This document shows, piece by piece, positions 8,923 to 60,500 of a stretch of DNA of 64,000 nt. The notes below the pieces were generated by a model. It did not search any database, was not told where the DNA came from, and saw nothing but the letters and a program-made list of their open reading frames with translations. The position numbers and the translations under genes are program-made. This stretch comes from Clostridia bacterium (GTDB lineage Bacteria > Bacillota > Clostridia > Oscillospirales > Acutalibacteraceae). The stretch spans positions 1,010 to 65,009 of the forward strand of contig JAFQLV010000013.1 in the NCBI GenBank assembly GCA_017396515.1, in the 5' to 3' direction. Numbering within the stretch: the stretch's first letter is position 1; the number at the start of each line of letters is the position of its first letter.

Positions 8923-9083
8923 AATTATGAATGAGGAATTATGAATTATGAATTATGAATTGCGACTGAAATTCTGCTAAAGGATAATAGCTACACGCAG
9001 AGATAATGAAGCGTCAGCTTCATTTCATGACCATCAGGTCATTTCATGCACTCAGTGCATTTCATGCCGTCAGGCATTTCATC
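8923..9083 (+). repeat. Structured intergenic element E1: AATTATG array, GCGAC junction, CGCAGAG box and four tandem hairpins
   Basis: Array AATTATG AATGAGG AATTATG x3 AATT at 8923-8961. GCGACTGAAATTCTGCTAAAGGATAA is homologous to the left arm of copies A/B/C. Hairpins span 9006-9077. Confidence 0.8.
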
Positions 9084-9093
9084 AAAACAGCAA

Positions 9094-9123
9094 CCCGACA
9101 GAGCAATCTGCCGGGTTTTGTTG
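9094..9123. terminator. Bidirectional terminator between the TSCPD gene/E1 and the 444-aa secreted protein gene
   Basis: CCCGACAG-agcaat-CTGCCGGG with TTTTGTTG downstream and an A-rich tract upstream. Confidence 0.65.
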
Positions 9124-9133
9124 TATGTATTTA

Positions 9134-10426
9134 TCAATAGTGTGCCGCACCGCAAGCGCAGACTGCATTTTTCTTAAAGAGCTTCTGGAAGAAGAGAATA
9201 ATTTTGAAGAAGAAGGCTTTTATACCGCCTGCATGACAGTTGCAGGAGCAAGGCTCGGCAGGCTTTTCAAAAGTATAACCACAGCCGTAGTCGCATTTGT
9301 AGTCGCCGTTGGTGTCTTTGTGAGGCAGCTTATCAACACGGTCTGCCTCGTAAGCATCACCGCACTCGCAGGTGTAAACTGTGTAGCCGTATGTTGTGCA
9401 GGTGGGTGCATAGACCTTTGTCTTATAGTCGTGCTTGTGATTTAAATTATTGATATCATTAATTTTTAATGCAGGGCGAACACCGAACTCAAGTCCATCT
9501 ACCCAAAAACAGTTCGTATAGCCGGAATCTTCAATATACCAATTTTTAGCTGTATCAATACCCGGAGTACGAAGATGCCAAGGAGATCTTTGGTCATAGC
9601 CGTAAGCCGGACCGGCATCATAGACTCCCTGACACTCAGCATAATCGCTGCTTTGTGCAATTAGATTTACATGACTAACGAAACCAAAATCGCTGTTTTG
9701 TGTATCTTCATAAGACAGCAGAAATATTTTGTCTTTTGTTTCATTTCTGCTTTCTGCAGGTTCTCCAGAACATACAACATCGTTATTAAGGGTAGTAATG
9801 GAGATTTCTTTCTTTTCATTATCCGTAAAAGCCGTATTATAGAAATCATCATTGAGCCATTTTCTTATTGAGCTTGTTTCGTAATCATTTGCATAGTTTT
9901 CATAATCAGGGTCGTTGAAACAGATGTATGCACCGTCATCAGCTGTTTTAAAATAAGATGTGTTGCTGAAAGCCTGTGTGTCAATAATCGTTTCACACAA
10001 CACAAAACCTGTTTCAGGGTCAAGAACACGCCACTCAATAGGCTCAAACTTAAACCAATAGGTCATGTTGACAAAATAACCGTTATCATCTTGTCTTGTA
10101 AAACCACCATTTCTGTATTCTATAAATTTAACACCGCGATATTTATTGCCGCCATATTCTACATCGATATATCTCATCCAAGACATTTGCATTACCGCCC
10201 CATCGAGATCCCAATAATAGTCATAGCTTGTCCAGTTTTCCCACGCAGGTGCAAGTGCACCAAGCTCAGCTATCAAGGCAAAATCTTTGACCTCACTCTG
10301 CGGATATGAGCCGAACTGAATAATGTCGCCCACCTTATATTTACCACCCTCAGCATAAGCCATAGGCACTGTGCAGGCTATCATAATAACCGCTAACACC
10401 AGACTTAGTAACTTTTTTGATTTCAT
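9134..10426 (-). CDS. Secreted protein (DUF6273-like N-terminal region) with Cys-pair module and Cys-flanked hydrophobic C-terminal tail
   Basis: Signal peptide MKSKKLLSLVLAVIMIACTVPMAYA after an AGGAGG RBS. GDIIQFGSYPQ and IEWRVLD motifs are present. The tail is CSCNCHAGGIKAFFFKIILFFQKLFKKNAVCACGAAHY. Confidence 0.75.
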   Translation of the reverse strand: MKSKKLLSLVLAVIMIACTVPMAYAEGGKYKVGDIIQFGSYPQSEVKDFALIAELGALAPAWENWTSYDYYWDLDGAVMQMSWMRYIDVEYGGNKYRGVKFIEYRNGGFTRQDDNGYFVNMTYWFKFEPIEWRVLDPETGFVLCETIIDTQAFSNTSYFKTADDGAYICFNDPDYENYANDYETSSIRKWLNDDFYNTAFTDNEKKEISITTLNNDVVCSGEPAESRNETKDKIFLLSYEDTQNSDFGFVSHVNLIAQSSDYAECQGVYDAGPAYGYDQRSPWHLRTPGIDTAKNWYIEDSGYTNCFWVDGLEFGVRPALKINDINNLNHKHDYKTKVYAPTCTTYGYTVYTCECGDAYEADRVDKLPHKDTNGDYKCDYGCGYTFEKPAEPCSCNCHAGGIKAFFFKIILFFQKLFKKNAVCACGAAHY

Positions 10427-10450
10427 AAGAAAACCTCCTAATTTCTTTTG

Positions 10451-10493
10451 TGTAACAAAATGTAACATAATTATTGTAACAAACTGTTACAAT
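10451..10493. promoter_or_regulatory. TGTAACA repeat cluster (candidate XRE operator) in a divergent intergenic region
   Basis: TGTAACA at 10451, 10461 and 10475, with inverted TGTTACA at 10485. The last two form the palindrome ATTGTAACA-aac-TGTTACAAT (10473-10493). Confidence 0.5.
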
Positions 10494-10513
10494 AAAGTCA
10501 AGGGGTGTTTGTT

Positions 10514-10717
10514 ATGAAAGGGCTGAAAATTGTAAGAAAATCACGAAATCTGAACCAACAAAAGGTTGCTATGGATTTAAACATTTCACGTGAAGCTCTT
10601 TCTCACTATGAAAACGGCAAACGGGAACCAAGCCTCGATATGCTCAATAAATTATCAAAATATTTTAATGTTTCAATCGACTACCTCATTAACGGTGAAG
10701 AATTTAAAAAGCAGTAA
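10514..10717 (+). CDS. XRE-family helix-turn-helix transcriptional regulator
   Basis: The sequence QQKVAMDLNISREALSHYENGKREPSLDMLNKLSKYFNVSIDYL is a classic Cro/C1 HTH. Confidence 0.8.
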   Translation: MKGLKIVRKSRNLNQQKVAMDLNISREALSHYENGKREPSLDMLNKLSKYFNVSIDYLINGEEFKKQ

Positions 10718-10754
10718 CATCAACTTTACACTGATGCTACTGCTTTTAGTTTTT
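10710..10754 (+). terminator. Terminator of the XRE regulator gene
   Basis: AGCAGTA...TACTGCT stem followed by TTTTAGTTTTT. Confidence 0.6.
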
Positions 10755-10757
10755 ATC

Positions 10758-10877
10758 AATTATTCTTGACGGACCGTCGGGGACGCCGGTCCCTACGCAT
10801 TTACTCTGCGGAAAGACACTCCCCTTCTCGGCAGAGTACGACGCAATTCATAATTCATAATTCATACTTCATAATTA
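10758..10877 (-). repeat. Structured intergenic element E2: AATTATG-type array containing the mgtC stop, GCGTCG junction and CCGCAGAG box
   Basis: The plus strand reads ...CTCTGCGGAAAGAC...GCAGAGTACGACGC AATTCAT x3 ACTTCAT AATTA (array 10845-10877). Confidence 0.75.
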
Positions 10878-11597
10878 ATCAATATAAAGGTCTCTTATGC
10901 CCTCAAGGGCTCTGATTGCGGATATTGTCATGCTCAGGCTTTCCTCGTCCTTTGGCATAACAACTGCCTTCATAACAATTGAGTCGCTCTTGCGCTTGGT
11001 GGAGGCACTGTCGGCATAAAGCACCTCAAGGGTGTGCAGGTTGCCGCCGTACCGCTTGATGATTGCACCGATTTCAGCCGCCTGACGGGAAAGATTGTCA
11101 GCCTCAATATATATGTTTCTTGAGGGATTGCCCTTGGCAACAACACGCTTGAGAGTGTTAAGAGTTATGTAAATAACCAATGTGGTTACAAGTGCGCCCA
11201 CATAATAGCCTGCACCTACGGCAAGACCTATGCAGCTGACCGCCCAGAGAGATGCGGCTGTTGTCAGGCCCTTAACACTGAAGCCCTCACGCAGAATTGT
11301 GCCTGCACCGAGGAAACCGATGCCGCTGATAACCTGTGCACCGAGTCTTGTGGGGTCAACATTTACAAGTCCCTGATACTCCAAAAAAACATATTTCGAT
11401 GTCATCATAACAAGGGTTGAGCCTACGGCAACAAGAATGTGAGTTCTGAAGCCTGCAGGTCTGTGGGAATGCTCTCTCTCATAGCCGATAACACCGCTGA
11501 ATATAACGGCAAGCACCATTTTTATCACGGCATCAAGGGCATACTGCACGGAATCAACGGAATATAGCCCGATTAAAAAATCTTTTATCGCTTCCAT
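10875..11597 (-). CDS. mgtC: MgtC/SapB-family membrane protein
   Basis: GYEREHSHRPAGFRTHILVAVGSTLVM and the following TM pattern are typical of MgtC. AAAGGAG lies 8 nt before the ATG at 11597. Confidence 0.85.
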   Translation of the reverse strand: MEAIKDFLIGLYSVDSVQYALDAVIKMVLAVIFSGVIGYEREHSHRPAGFRTHILVAVGSTLVMMTSKYVFLEYQGLVNVDPTRLGAQVISGIGFLGAGTILREGFSVKGLTTAASLWAVSCIGLAVGAGYYVGALVTTLVIYITLNTLKRVVAKGNPSRNIYIEADNLSRQAAEIGAIIKRYGGNLHTLEVLYADSASTKRKSDSIVMKAVVMPKDEESLSMTISAIRALEGIRDLYID

Positions 11598-11763: not shown

Positions 11764-11800
11764 AATTAATTCATAATTCATAATTCCTAATTCATAATTA
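11764..11800 (-). repeat. Solitary AATTCAT/AATTATG heptamer array upstream of zapA
   Basis: AATT AATTCAT AATTCAT AATTCCT AATTCAT AATTA. It is near-identical to the array at 46418-46452. Confidence 0.8.
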
Positions 11801-14833: not shown

Positions 14834-14853
14834 TCAAAGCAGCAAGCCTTGAT

Positions 14854-15133
14854 AAAATGCAAAATTCAAAATTCAAAATGCAAAATTGCGGTCGCGGGCA
14901 CATTTCTGCCGATAAATAATCTTCTCCCGCAAAGTGAGTTGAGATAAAATACCAACTCACAAGATTATAAAAAATAAGGCAGGTCACTACCGATTTGGAA
15001 GTGACCTGCCGTTTGTTTTAAGATTGATAAGATTTGCCGTTTCTGAGCTTTATCTACGCGGAAAGAGTCTTAAGGTTAGTCAGTGGTAAAATCGCGACCA
15101 CAATTTTGCATTTTGAATTTTGCATTTTGCATT
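14854..15133 (+). repeat. Structured intergenic element, full copy A (AAAATGC arrays)
   Basis: Left array at 14854-14886 and TGCGGTCGCG at 14887-14896. CCCGCAAAG box, then terminator hairpin at 14978-15019 and GCGGAAAGAG box. CGCGACCACA at 15093-15102, followed by the inverted array to 15133. Confidence 0.9.
14978..15019 (+). terminator. Rho-independent terminator hairpin inside element A
   Basis: GGCAGGTCAC-13 nt-GTGACCTGCC followed by GTTTGTTTT. It lies downstream of dCMP deaminase. Confidence 0.7.
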
Positions 15134-16417: not shown

Positions 16418-17269
16418 GTGATTACAATAAAAAAGCTTATTTGTGTTTTAGCCTTTCTGTCGGTACTGCTTACATTCTGTGCTTGCACAAAGGAAGACTC
16501 CCCGCATATAACCGCTGCGCCTGAGGAAACAACCACAACAAAATCTCTTACGGTGAGAGTGACCTTCCCCGAGGGTCTGACCCTTGTGCAGATTGCAGAA
16601 AAATTAGAGGAAAGCGAAGTCTGCAATGCCTCACGCTTTATAGCGTTGACAAACGATATGACTTATATTCAGACACTCCCCTACTCTTTTATAAATGAAA
16701 TTGAAAACAGACAGGAAAGGGCATTTATCCTTGAGGGATATATCTTCCCCGACACCTATGAGTTTTATCGCGGTGAAAGCGAAGAAAAAGCTCTCTCCCG
16801 CTTTCTTGACAACACAGAACGAAAGCTGACGGCAGAGTACAGACAAAGAGCCGCAGAGCTTGGCTACAGCCTTGATGAAATTATCACTCTTGCCTCAATT
16901 GTGCAGGAGGAGTCTTACACCAATGACAGTGTTAAAAATGTCTCAAGCGTCCTTCACAACAGGCTTCGCAGCCCCTCTTTTCCGCGCCTTCAGTGTGATG
17001 TTACCATTCACTATGTCAACGATTATATCACCGACTCGAAATTTCTCAGTGCCACTGACGGCTATGCCGAAAAATACAACACCTACAAGTGTGAGGGCTT
17101 GCCCGTCGGTGCAATTTGCAACCCGGGCCTCGCTTCAATTGAGGCTGCCCTTTACCCTGCCGAGACGGATTATTACTACTTTGTAACAGACAGCGATTGG
17201 GATTATTATTATGCCTCGACCTATGCAGAGCACAAGAAAAACTGCAATGCAGTGGGACTTGCGGGTTAA
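16418..17269 (+). CDS. mltG: Endolytic murein transglycosylase MltG (YceG-like)
   Basis: N-terminal TM segment, EGYIFPDTYEF, LASIVQEE and YNTY..GLP.G.I.NPG motifs. The start codon is uncertain (GTG at 16418). Confidence 0.85.
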   Translation: MITIKKLICVLAFLSVLLTFCACTKEDSPHITAAPEETTTTKSLTVRVTFPEGLTLVQIAEKLEESEVCNASRFIALTNDMTYIQTLPYSFINEIENRQERAFILEGYIFPDTYEFYRGESEEKALSRFLDNTERKLTAEYRQRAAELGYSLDEIITLASIVQEESYTNDSVKNVSSVLHNRLRSPSFPRLQCDVTIHYVNDYITDSKFLSATDGYAEKYNTYKCEGLPVGAICNPGLASIEAALYPAETDYYYFVTDSDWDYYYASTYAEHKKNCNAVGLAG

Positions 17270-17299
17270 TTATGAATTATGAATGAGGAATTATGAATG
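17268..17299 (+). repeat. AATTATG heptamer array forming the mltG/GNAT intercistronic junction
   Basis: AATTATG AATTATG AATGAGG AATTATG AATG overlaps the TAA stop at 17267-17269, GAGGAA at 17285-17290 and the ATG at 17297. Confidence 0.8.
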
Positions 17300-29805: not shown

Positions 29806-30139
29806 AATGCAAAATGCTAAAAAAATGCAAAATGCAAAATTGTGGTCGCGGGGAATTTTCTGCTGATAAGTAGTTTTCTCCCGCAAAAGGAGTGGGGACG
29901 AGATGGTAAGTCTGTAGATTATAATCCTCATCCGTCACTGCGTGACACCTTCCCCTTAACTCAAGGGGAAGGTATAAATAAGGCAGGTCACTACAAGTTT
30001 TCAGTAGTGACCTGCCGTTTGTTTTAAGATTGATGAGATTTGCCTCCTCTGAGCTTCATCTATGCGGAAAGAGGCTTAAGGTTAGTGGGCGGTGAAATCG
30101 CGACCACAATTTTGCATTTTGCATTTAGCATTTTGCATT
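29806..30139 (+). repeat. Structured intergenic element, full copy B (AAAATGC arrays, extra internal hairpins)
   Basis: TGTGGTCGCG at 29841-29850 and CGCGACCACA at 30099-30108. Terminator hairpin at 29982-30025. A 71-nt block (30011-30081) is identical to the reverse complement of 56692-56762. Confidence 0.9.
29982..30025 (+). terminator. Rho-independent terminator hairpin inside element B
   Basis: GGCAGGTCACTAC-9 nt-GTAGTGACCTGCC followed by GTTTGTTTT. Confidence 0.75.
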
Positions 30140-30143
30140 CAAA

Positions 30144-31870
30144 TTACCATCCGAAGCCGAAGTATTCGTTGAAGAAATCCTCAAAGCTGCTTGCACCGCC
30201 GTAGTAGTAATCGTTGCCGCCTGAAGGCATAGTTGTTGTTTCCTCCTGCTGTGACGAGCCCTTATCCTCAACGAGGGTGATTGTCACATCAAAGGTTTTG
30301 GTTTTATAGGTACGGTTATCAACTCTGCAAAGGGTGAGAGTGAGGGTGTCACCAACTGCACCTGTGTCAATAAGGTCAAGAAGCACGCTGGAATCGTCCA
30401 TATCCTTGCCGTTGACTGCTATAATAAGGTCGCCTACCTGTGCATCTGTATCCTTAAGTGAGCTGTCCTGAGAAATGCCTGCAATTACAAGTGATCCCTG
30501 AGGAAGACCCTTAATGGAAACAACAAGTGAATAAAGCTGATATGCACTTACGGGTGCATACTCAATGCCCAGCTTAGGTCTGTTAGGCACATATTTATAC
30601 TGAATGAGTGCATCTACAACAGGCACCGCAATTGATGTCGGCACCGCAAAGCCCATGCCCTCATACTCGGTTGAGGCTATCTTTGAGGAGTTGATGCCCA
30701 CTATCTGACCTGCCATATTGACCAGTGCACCGCCCGAGTTGCCCGGATTAATGGCAGCACTGTGCTGAATACAGGTCATTGTATAGGTTGCATCCACACT
30801 TCTGTCAATGGCTGAAACTATGCCGTCAGTAATTGAGCCGAAGAAGGCTGCACCGCCCGGGTTGCCGATAGCATAAATGGGCTCGCCTATTTTAAGCGCA
30901 GAGGAATCGCCTATTCGGCAAGAGGAAGTCCTGTTTCCTTAATTTTGAGCACACCTATATCTGTTCTGGTGTCACTTGCCACCATCTCTGCCTCAAAGCT
31001 TTTGCCGTTTTCAAGAAGCACACCGTAGGTGACACCGCTTTCGTTAATAACATGGGCACAGGTGACAACATAGGTATATTTGCCTGTTTCATCTGTTGCC
31101 CAGAGAACGCCCGAGCCTTCACCGTAAAGCTGACCGTTTTTATAGGTCATAACACCCACAACACTGGGACGAACCTTTTCAGCTATAACAATTGAATTAA
31201 TCTGTGACAGCTCCTCACTGCCCTGTGTGGTTCCGATTATGGGCTTGATTGTTGTGGGAGCTTCTGTGGTTGAAGTGTTTGCATCGGTTTTTCCCACATC
31301 GGGAGCACCGCCCGTAAACGCATTGACAATTGCAATAACAGCTATAACAATGCATGCCGCCACTATGCCTAAGGCAATCTTTTTACCGCTACCCTTCTTT
31401 TTGGGAGGCATATTGTTGCCCACCTGATAGTATGAATAATTCTGCTGTTGCTGATTAAAGGGAGGGGTCTGACCGTAGTGATTGAACTGCTGCGTGTTGT
31501 TAGGTGCAGCATAAGGGTTGAATGAAGGAGGTGTTTCTTTTGAGTCTGTCACCCTTTGGGCACCCACAGGCTCTGCCTTTACACTTTCCTGCTTGTTTCC
31601 TGCATCGGCATAAGAATTATACTCCTGCTGATTTGCACCATCGGAATAAGGGTTGTAATCGGAATAAACGCCTTGTTCGCCCTCTTTGAAATATCCCTCG
31701 TAATTCTTTGCATCTTCACCTGAAAAGCTTATTTCCTCACCTGAAACATTAGGGTCAGAAAAAATATCCGTGCTTTCATGAGCCTTAGCTTCATCTGCAG
31801 TGTCAGGGGCAATACCCTCGCTGTGCTCAGGCTCCTGTGAAGGATTGTAGTTTGTTTCGTTATCGTTCAT
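30144..31870 (-). pseudogene. htrA: HtrA/DegP-type serine protease with PDZ domain, split by a 1-nt frameshift near 30909-30913
   Basis: The upstream ORF ends ...DIGVLKIKETGLPLAE-TAG. The next frame continues GDSSALKIGEPIYAIGNPGG...INPGNSGGALV plus a PDZ domain. Only 2 nt (TA) separate the GAA and GGC codons. Confidence 0.75.
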
Positions 31871-56633: not shown

Positions 56634-56910
56634 AATGCAAAATGCTAAATGCAAAATGCAAAATTACGGTCGCGACTCCACCACCCGCTGACCTTAAGCC
56701 TCTTTCCGCATAGATGAAGCTCAGAGGAGGCAAATCTCATCAATCTTAAAACAAACGGCAGGTCACTTCCAATTCGGTAGCGACCTGCTGATGCATTATA
56801 ATCTACAGAGTGGGAATTTCATCCCCACTCCCTTTGCGGGAGAGGATTGCTTATCAGTAGAAATGTGCCCGCGACCACAATTTTGCATTTTGCATTTAGC
56901 ATTCTGCATT
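56634..56910 (-). repeat. Structured intergenic element, full copy C (inverted relative to A and B)
   Basis: The reverse complement aligns end to end with A/B. GGTCGCG at 56668-56674, CGCGACCACA at 56870-56879, hairpin at 56757-56788. Confidence 0.9.
56748..56788 (-). terminator. Terminator hairpin inside element C (slightly degenerate stem)
   Basis: The minus strand reads GCAGGTCGCTACCGAATTGGAAGTGACCTGCC followed by GTTTGTTTT. It lies downstream of ridA. Confidence 0.6.
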
Positions 56911-60152: not shown

Positions 60153-60199
60153 TGAAAGCATCTCCTTAAAATTAAAGTAGCGGTGGAGTAAAAAGTCAA

Positions 60200-60458
60200 G
60201 AGTGAGGAGTGAGGAGTTAGGAGTTAGTAGTTAGGAGTTAGGAGTTAGGAGTTGTGGTCGCGGGTTAACTCTATACTAACCTTAAACTCGTTGCCGCAAG
60301 CACAAAACTCGCAAGCGGAAAATTCCGTCGATCATAAAATGTGCTTTTAAATTGCATTATTTTGGCGGAATATAGGGTTCGTTTAAATAAGTTTAAAACG
60401 GATATAATCGGAGCGAAGCGACCCTTAACTCCTAACTCCTAACTCCAAACTCCTAACT
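60200..60458 (-). repeat. Variant element D with GGAGTTA/TAACTCC arrays between ilvC and ilvD
   Basis: GAGTGAG x2 and GAGTTAG-type x5 at 60200-60252. TGTGGTCGCGGG at 60253-60264. The CTAACCTTAA segment is shared with A/B/C. GCGACCC then TTAACTCC TAACTCC TAACTCC AAACTCC TAACT to 60458. Confidence 0.8.
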
Positions 60459-60500
60459 TATTAAAGCTGCTGCACAAACGCACAGCAGCCCTGCAAATTC

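Follow-up and report, generated by a model that had tools for sequence, protein, structure and literature searches.

The 334-nt sequence at positions 29806-30139 of the 64-kb stretch of DNA analysed here (the window) is probably one copy, called B below, of a family of palindromic repeats that is non-coding, confined to one lineage and located between genes. Such repeats would constitute MITE- or foldback-like selfish DNA and be grouped with the heptamer-flanked cassettes that carry S23p genes, which are known from 23S rRNA intervening sequences. The family is new and narrowly distributed, being found in DNA scans in a single lineage of Acutalibacteraceae, an uncultured one of ruminant or gut type in which these repeats had gone unannotated until now. 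Its recognition explains both the extra length of B and the match between B and a second copy, C, neither of which then points to a new kind of gene; as a single finding this is modest. Repeats of this kind also break metagenome assemblies and are mistakable for RNA genes.

Copies of the repeat in the window

Three copies of the element (A, B and C) are present in the 64 kb, along with a distant relative (D) and several fragments. All copies were retrieved with nhmmer.

14856-15133, + strand: copy A, 278 nt, with convergent genes on either side
29806-30139, + strand: copy B, 334 nt, consisting of arms, interior, a module of about 50 nt and a central hairpin
56634-56910, - strand: copy C, 277 nt, in sense orientation between co-directional RidA and sigma-factor genes
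60185-60463, - strand: copy D, distantly related, in the ilvC-ilvD spacer, with arms of (GGAGTTA)n
54800-54905, + strand: armless relative of the central core, with the hairpin CCCGCAAAG and the hairpin GGCAGGTCAC...GTGACCTGCC as in the central core

The copies are positioned at gene ends, in spacers between protein-coding genes, that of B separating the convergent genes for an M14 gamma-D-Glu-mDAP peptidase and an HtrA-like protease. A preliminary description of this DNA had stated that B shares its ends with A, and a search of the window with a 26-nt end probe bears this out: exactly six sites were found, corresponding to both ends of A, B and C, with no matches in 100 shuffles. As that description also held, B is a longer variant of the element seen in A and C. 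The right half of D is homologous to all three (nhmmer E values of 1e-7 to 3e-4 against the window copies), and a right-hand sub-terminal motif, CTCTGCGG(A/C)AAGAG, is common to A, B, C, D and two ATGAATT-armed fragments. The central hairpin also stands alone at 54851-54895. The coding content of the copies (277-334 nt) is limited to short spurious ORFs.

Heptamer arrays were also observed elsewhere in the window. Solitary tandem arrays lie at gene boundaries at 11767-11799, 17268-17298 and 46337-46449, the last comprising (AGTGCAG)n and (AATTCAT)n arrays 50 nt apart with a CTCTGCGGCAAGAG-bearing fragment between them, which resembles a truncated element. A unit of 1.96 kb at 8923-10879 has inverted (ATGAATT)n arrays as its boundaries (38 nt, 89% complementary). 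Inside it are two genes, one of 444 aa on the minus strand and one of the XRE-type HTH class, together with a terminator-like hairpin and a hairpin array at 9021-9082 in which ATTTCAT accompanies palindromes. The right sub-terminal motif of this unit matches A, B and C; similarity to these copies is significant only for this right-hand motif, CTCTGCGGAAAGA, and not for the left sub-terminal part.

The HtrA-like protease gene beside B (30144-31870, minus strand) is split into two frames in the window and is intact, at 575-576 aa, in other strains. Alignment with strains L008 and L011 shows a single 1-nt indel and no mismatches, and the split represents either a sequencing error or a recent pseudogene.

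Anatomy of copy B

Each A/B/C unit is delimited by outer inverted arms of 41 nt composed of tandem heptamers, (AAAATGC)n. These adjoin an inner motif that is conserved and reads TTGTGGTCGCGG at the left arm and CGCGACCACAA at the right. The arms are 93-95% complementary over the 41 nt, with a perfect stretch of 28 nt in B, and pairing is also possible within the interior, between CCUCUCCCGCA on the left and UGCGGAAAGAGG on the right. Since the left and right interiors are partly complementary, the entire unit is a long imperfect palindrome, with a folding z of approximately -14 on both strands. The parts of B are as follows.

29806-29851, + strand: left arm, tandem heptamers AATGCAA/AAAATGC with a 4-nt AAAA slip, then the inner motif
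29840-29851, + strand: conserved inner motif TTGTGGTCGCGG of the left arm
29852-29916, + strand: left interior, holding CTCCCGCAAAAGGAG and a degenerate hairpin, partly complementary to the right interior
29917-29925, + strand: GATTATAAT motif, with a perfect TATAAT at 29920-29925
29926-29975, + strand: facultative module of about 50 nt, with two hairpins and a TATAA direct repeat at both edges
29934-29946: hairpin 1 of the module, GTCAC-tgc-GTGAC, predicted -5.0 kcal/mol
29948-29972: hairpin 2 of the module, CCTTCCCC-ttaactcaa-GGGGAAGG, predicted -18.7 kcal/mol
29982-30028, no strand: central hairpin, GGCAGGTCACTAC...GTAGTGACCTGCC, -25.6 kcal/mol forward and -25.8 kcal/mol reverse
30006-30082, + strand: block of 77 nt matched perfectly by copy C (56691-56767, reverse complement)
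30028-30060, + strand: hairpin GATGAG...CTTCATC, with a sub-threshold C/D-box-like match
30061-30075, + strand: sub-terminal motif TATGCGGAAAGAGGC, common to family D and the fragments at 10800 and 46380
30099-30139, + strand: right arm, CGCGACCACAA then (TTTTGCA)n

The additional segment with two hairpins that had been noted in B is present, with a length of about 50 nt rather than the 55 nt or so first given. B is 56-57 nt longer than A and C; the left arm accounts for 4 nt of this gap, a hairpin loop for 2 nt and the module for the remainder. The module is placed after the conserved GATTATAA, its borders being ambiguous by 5 nt because TATAA is present at either edge, and the insertion hotspot lies directly 3' of the GATTATAAT motif, which is present in every A/B/C-type copy but that of strain L011, where GATTTTAA is found instead. 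Within the window the module is specific to B, with A and C lacking it. The orthologue of B in a sister species also has no insert, and as this polarises the change, the module was most likely gained in the species represented by the window. The hairpin that is degenerate in the left interior of B is intact in an alignment of A, C and the sister-species copy.

Other palindromes occupy the position of the insert in strains L009 and L011. Where B has GTCAC-TGC-GTGAC as hairpin 1, L009 has ACCGC-AA-GCGGT and L011 a longer form, and the A-locus copy of strain L021 carries a truncated module of the L011 type. The additional 50 nt of B may hence represent a lineage-specific insertion of a two-hairpin module at the hotspot, later remodelled through the replacement of palindromes.

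Sequence exchange between copies

The block at 30011-30081 had been described as identical over 71 nt to the reverse complement of 56692-56762 in copy C, with copy A differing from it at seven positions. The count for A was confirmed, and the exact match between B and C in fact extends to 77 nt (30006-30082). None of the 77 positions in the block differs between these two copies, against 34 of 200 (17%) outside it, and under a uniform model of divergence such unevenness would have a probability of about 1e-4 to 1e-3 (a rough estimate). Of the causes suggested for the identity, strong constraint alone fails to explain it, because the same region varies at 6-14 positions when other copies or the sister species are compared, whereas gene conversion or recombination is favoured by the mosaic nature of the orthologues of B.

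An orthologous B, in the same orientation, was found in all six strains with contigs spanning the spacer, and two further contigs end within B. Relative to the window, these elements are 89.6-99.1% identical and their flanks 97.5-99.9% identical, with the differences in patches. In L011, identity in the flanks is 99.7-99.95%, with 5 mismatches over approximately 1.8 kb on one side and 0 on the other, yet the element itself has around 40 differences in roughly 90 alignment columns. The left interior of the L009 element is 99% identical to that of B and the right only 86%, while the opposite pattern is seen in L007. Such patchy divergence despite near-identical flanks implies the replacement of segments, as in gene conversion between paralogues. 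The perfect block shared by B and C is therefore best explained by gene conversion or recombination between copies, and would represent either a conversion tract or a recently shared segment of the two paralogues.

Sequence resembling the arms was also seen outside the elements, in the form of a second left arm of 52 nt in L009 (8910-9002) and an arm remnant, AATGCTAAATGCAGAG, in L021 (2005-2040). These extra outer arms suggest that arms have been duplicated more than once or that events were nested.

Inversion at the A locus

The interior of copy A is in the orientation of the window in five strains and inverted in the other four of the nine compared, between the same arms and flanks. One explanation would be that the element is an inverton, in which a recombinase acting in trans on the arms flips the interior and thereby alters expression of the flanking genes. 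The arrangement of a segment of about 200 bp between 41-bp inverted repeats would suit such a switch, as would the presence of both orientations within identical flanks; the arm sequences of the flipped strains fit a crossover inside the arms, and the inner motif TTGTGGTCGCGG is kept across families while the outer heptamers vary. However, the orientation of the interior follows strain lineage and sequence divergence, unlike the pattern expected of fast switching, and a single orientation is observed at B (7/7), C (3/3) and D (3/3). No recombinase gene is found near any copy in the gene calls around A, B, C and D, a convincing internal promoter was not found, and the central hairpin is predicted to terminate transcription in either orientation. 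Furthermore, the loop of an unrelated hairpin beside A also flips, pointing to a generic process driven by inverted repeats. An inverton is for these reasons very unlikely.

The hairpin in question is a small terminator-like structure, TCAAAGC-loop-GCTTTGA, located just upstream of A (14838-14856; also in L019 and L026 at about 2005-2025). Its loop is TGCAG in some strains and CTGCA in others, and so constitutes a second inversion mediated by inverted repeats at this place. Given this flipped loop, the tracking of lineage by orientation and the lack of a nearby recombinase, the inversion at A is attributed to recombination or template switching that occurs now and then between inverted repeats; a programmed switch is not the preferred reading.

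Structure, strand and transcription

A further explanation is that the repeats are a family of structured non-coding RNA genes, each producing a forward-strand transcript with a long processing stem and with hairpins, including the extra two of B, as functional domains. The structure is certainly retained between copies: when that of copy C is transferred to the others, 90% of alignment cells are paired, compared with approximately 40% in slid controls, and 14 pairs are changed on both sides. Substitutions that preserve stems, proposed earlier as the mark of a constrained structure as opposed to decaying DNA, were found on alignment in the arms, in hairpin 1 of the insert and in two interior hairpins. 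The left hairpin of B is an exception, having degenerated, which tells against an RNA gene, and the double-sided changes fall mostly in the arms. Among the interior pairs, that of columns 247 and 269 in the GATGAG...CTTCATC hairpin passes from G-C through G.U to A-U across copies, as would be expected of an RNA, although the ratio of wobble pairs to A.C mismatches in the arms and hairpin (about 5 sites against 3) is uninformative.

The evidence from strand is similarly divided. In 10 of 11 copies the raw folding energy is lower for the forward strand, which is also the sense strand in both co-directional contexts (C and D). When the interiors are compared with dinucleotide shuffles, the z-scores are alike on the two strands (-2.9 to -6.4 forward, -2.7 to -6.6 reverse), indicating that the energy advantage of the forward strand is an effect of G+T composition; strand-specific selection for an RNA was rejected for this reason. 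The sub-threshold C/D-box match offers some resemblance to a k-turn, but the k-turn reading of UGAUGAG...CUGAG was likewise discarded, as copy A has UGAUAAG, which breaks the G.A pairing, and the alternative helix GAUGAG/CUUCAUC co-varies. The inversion of the A interior in four of nine strains, the lack of any excess of promoters or match to an Rfam family, and the absence of the element from a close relative also argue against an RNA gene, which is accordingly judged unlikely. The data fit palindromy at the level of DNA, with folding also in any RNA that reads through the element; a dedicated RNA gene is unsupported.

A more specific transcriptional role would make the element a miniature expression cassette, in which TATAAT serves as a -10 box, transcription runs into a terminator formed by the central hairpin, and the insert of B makes up most of a small RNA, about 95 nt long, with hairpins that vary between strains. 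In keeping with this, the perfect TATAAT at 29920-29925 is conserved beside the hotspot, the insert falls exactly between it and the terminator-like hairpin, and copy C has a promoter-like ATGAAA-16-TATAAT (10 of 12 matches). However, shuffled sequences contain promoter-like sites just as often, and B has no called site; its -35 region matches poorly and an extended -10 is lacking. In addition, A and C would yield a terminator hairpin alone, and the module is truncated in the A copy of L021. It is thus very improbable indeed that the element is such a cassette.

The central hairpin itself has a 13-bp G+C-rich stem and lies between an A-tract and a T-tract, with ATAAATAA on its 5' side and GTTTGTTTT on its 3' side, and on the basis of its sequence looks like a bidirectional intrinsic terminator with the U-rich tails GUUUGUUUU and UUAUUUAU. 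A terminator scan called a reverse-strand site in A but no site in B, which it misses because of the 9-nt loop. Under the preferred interpretation of these repeats as selfish DNA, insertion into spacers would be tolerated because the elements bring with them this predicted bidirectional terminator. In RNA reading through an element, the arms would be expected to pair as a duplex of about 40 bp that RNase III could cleave, as in Correia elements and rRNA intervening sequences. Both terminator activity and cleavage of the arm duplex are properties that we infer from sequence.

Insertion polymorphism and arm variation in related species

Four relatives were located through homologues of the M14 peptidase and the spacers between the M14 and HtrA-like genes were compared.

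L067, M14 90% identical (amino acids): B-type element in the same orientation, without the 50-nt insert, with GCAGAAC-type heptamer arms
L070, M14 88% identical: element-free spacer of 49 nt with a plain terminator hairpin
L069, M14 86% identical: D-type element with (AGTGAAT)n arms
L068, M14 84% identical: unrelated spacer content

This spacer therefore exhibits insertion polymorphism across relatives. In L068, a more distant relative, the spacer content was observed to be a nested multi-hairpin element (2104-2210) in which GGCGGCTCCAT...ATGGAGCCGCC surround three short perfect palindromes.

The heptamer of the arms differs between members of the family, being AATGCAA, AATGCAG, GCAGAAC, GGAGTTA, AGTGAAT or ATGAATT, while the two arms of an element are always complementary. 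The conserved property of the arms is hence their complementarity, or their concerted evolution, unlike the fixed end sequences to which transposases bind.

At one further locus (L023, 1998-2117), an identical dCMP deaminase protein is encoded beside wholly different downstream genes (DUF3021, LytTR) and no element is present. This difference is a rearrangement or a transferred gene.

Distribution and mobility

Searches of sequence collections returned little. In the window and in eight related loci, Rfam searches at gathering and E-value thresholds produced no hit at or above the gathering score; the weaker matches were snoRNA and miRNA noise only, the strongest of them scoring 18.5 bits where 45 is required. 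A blastn search with B found nothing in plasmid and phage collections, four scans of viral contigs gave only chance hits in coding DNA, and a metagenome scan gave one chance hit only. Scanning a genome collection with a degenerate 28-nt core retrieved one record, an Acutalibacteraceae MAG. The single genome match, together with the purely chance match in metagenomes, implies that the family is rare or poorly assembled in those collections. Of 30 contigs retrieved around copies A, B and C, 14 terminate in or at the element, as is expected for a multi-copy, hairpin-forming repeat.

No means of transposition was apparent. Neither a transposase or recombinase, nor an autonomous cognate element with the same ends and a transposase, was found when the window and some 480 kb from related loci were inspected. 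There is no direct repeat indicative of a target-site duplication in the flanks of A (GATAA / AAAAA), B (AAAGT / CAAAT) or C (GATTA / ATCTT), and none could be derived from comparison with the empty site of L070. Retrons, omega-RNA/TnpB systems and integron attC sites were dismissed as identities for the element, since no reverse transcriptase, TnpB or integrase is present in the Pfam gene calls around A-D in related strains and their size and architecture are unfitting. All strains sampled have A, B and C at the same three sites, and B is present in the sister species as well, so movement must be rare. These elements would have spread as selfish DNA into spacers, moving only seldom.

Association with S23p cassettes

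In the ilvC-ilvD spacer of three other strains, D is replaced by a gene of 117-120 aa belonging to PF05635, the family of the "23S rRNA intervening sequence protein", or S23p, a four-helix-bundle protein. This gene is flanked by inverted AATTCAT/ATGAATT (or ATTTCAT) heptamer arrays and short variable palindromes. Homologues of S23p are very abundant in Clostridia, and arrays of heptamers with palindromes surround S23p genes at three further unrelated loci, making four in total. The positions in Clostridia MAG records at which this arrangement was seen are listed below.

L039, 2018-2692
L041, 2018-2625
L044, 1328-1960
L052, 1277-1500
L060, 431-1170
L062, 500-700

At these loci there is an array upstream of the S23p gene and usually an inverted array downstream, the conserved heptamer being ATGAATT/AATTCAT with the variant ATGAAAT, and short variable palindromes separate the heptamers. 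In L060, one array is duplicated, with a directly repeated copy flanking the gene on each side. Pure (ATGAATT)n arrays occur in the window too, as does a hairpin array of the S23p-cassette type (9021-9082); no S23p gene was detected in the window by tblastn, and it has no rRNA.

The 23S intervening sequence of Coxiella carries an S23p ORF, varies in its number of tandem heptamers and has a 28-bp terminal inverted-repeat stem that RNase III cuts (PMC4990558), and PF05635 resembles the Avd protein of diversity-generating retroelements (PMC10053308). The architectural parallel between A, B and C and the S23p cassettes is strong. The link between them is based on this similar architecture, one shared site (that of D) and one short motif, and does not involve extended homology. 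A tentative and rather doubtful extension of the parallel would be that heptamer-armed repeats and S23p cassettes in Clostridia all belong to a single class of elements, mobile or recombining, which is widespread but has not been described before and of which 23S rRNA intervening sequences are a special case, with the Avd-like S23p protein recognising heptamer arrays or hairpins and driving spread, inversion or the turnover of palindromes. If true, a very common orphan family, S23p, would gain a function.

Comparison with known repeat systems

Copies A, B and C are similar to MITEs in being shorter than 500 bp and non-coding, in having terminal inverted repeats and in occurring as dispersed copies with insertion polymorphism; they are unlike them in having no target-site duplication. 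The Correia elements (NEMIS) of Neisseria are reportedly small, non-coding, intergenic MITEs with terminal inverted repeats and length variants, and are said often to be co-transcribed with neighbouring genes; their ends can pair as a long RNA hairpin, which RNase III cleaves. The repeats described here share with them the small size, non-coding nature, intergenic location, terminal inverted repeats and variation in length. By contrast, Correia elements have fixed 26-bp ends, a TA target duplication and an IHF site, whereas A, B and C have heptamer arms that vary by family and no duplication, and there is no sequence similarity between the two.

The gain and loss of modules had been likened in the preliminary description to the variable boxB number of pneumococcal BOX elements, which reportedly have the structure boxA-boxB(n)-boxC, with the 45-nt boxB varying in its number of tandem copies. 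Both BOX and B are modular, hairpin-forming intergenic repeats in which length varies with the presence of internal modules, and the analogy holds loosely, insofar as a facultative module is found at a single hotspot where small palindromes are strain-specific. It does not extend to the arrangement of the modules: BOX has tandem copies of boxB and no heptamer arms, while there is no tandem internal box in B, whose insert is unique, repeats nothing in the element and is found nowhere else in the window.

Tandem heptamers have parallels in other organisms. The STRR heptamer arrays of cyanobacteria are said to contain embedded small dispersed repeats, to show compensatory changes in hairpins and to be associated with mini-transposons. 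In both cases intergenic tandem heptamer arrays accompany embedded hairpin elements, but STRR belong to another phylum and have other sequences, and the arrays described here are inverted pairs around a conserved core or an S23p gene. Foldback (FB) transposons of Drosophila and other eukaryotes have long inverted repeats of short tandem units, with variable arrays and a variable loop, and are mostly non-coding. These eukaryotic elements are far larger than A, B and C and have other unit sizes; no evolutionary link is implied by the likeness.

The S23p-type intervening sequences of Coxiella and Leptospira have in common with A, B and C a terminal inverted-repeat stem with tandem heptamers, and differ in that the copies in the window have no ORF and lie in intergenic spacers, not in rRNA helices 25 or 45. 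The arms of the present family are built of tandem heptamers, free in sequence but always complementary. Such an architecture also surrounds S23p genes in four unrelated places and is seen in the rRNA intervening sequence of Coxiella. This shared heptamer architecture provides a handle on how intervening sequences and S23p genes move and on the function of the S23p protein, and the heptamer-array architecture common to S23p cassettes and rRNA intervening sequences, which lies outside the coordinates of B, is the most interesting lead to arise from the analysis.
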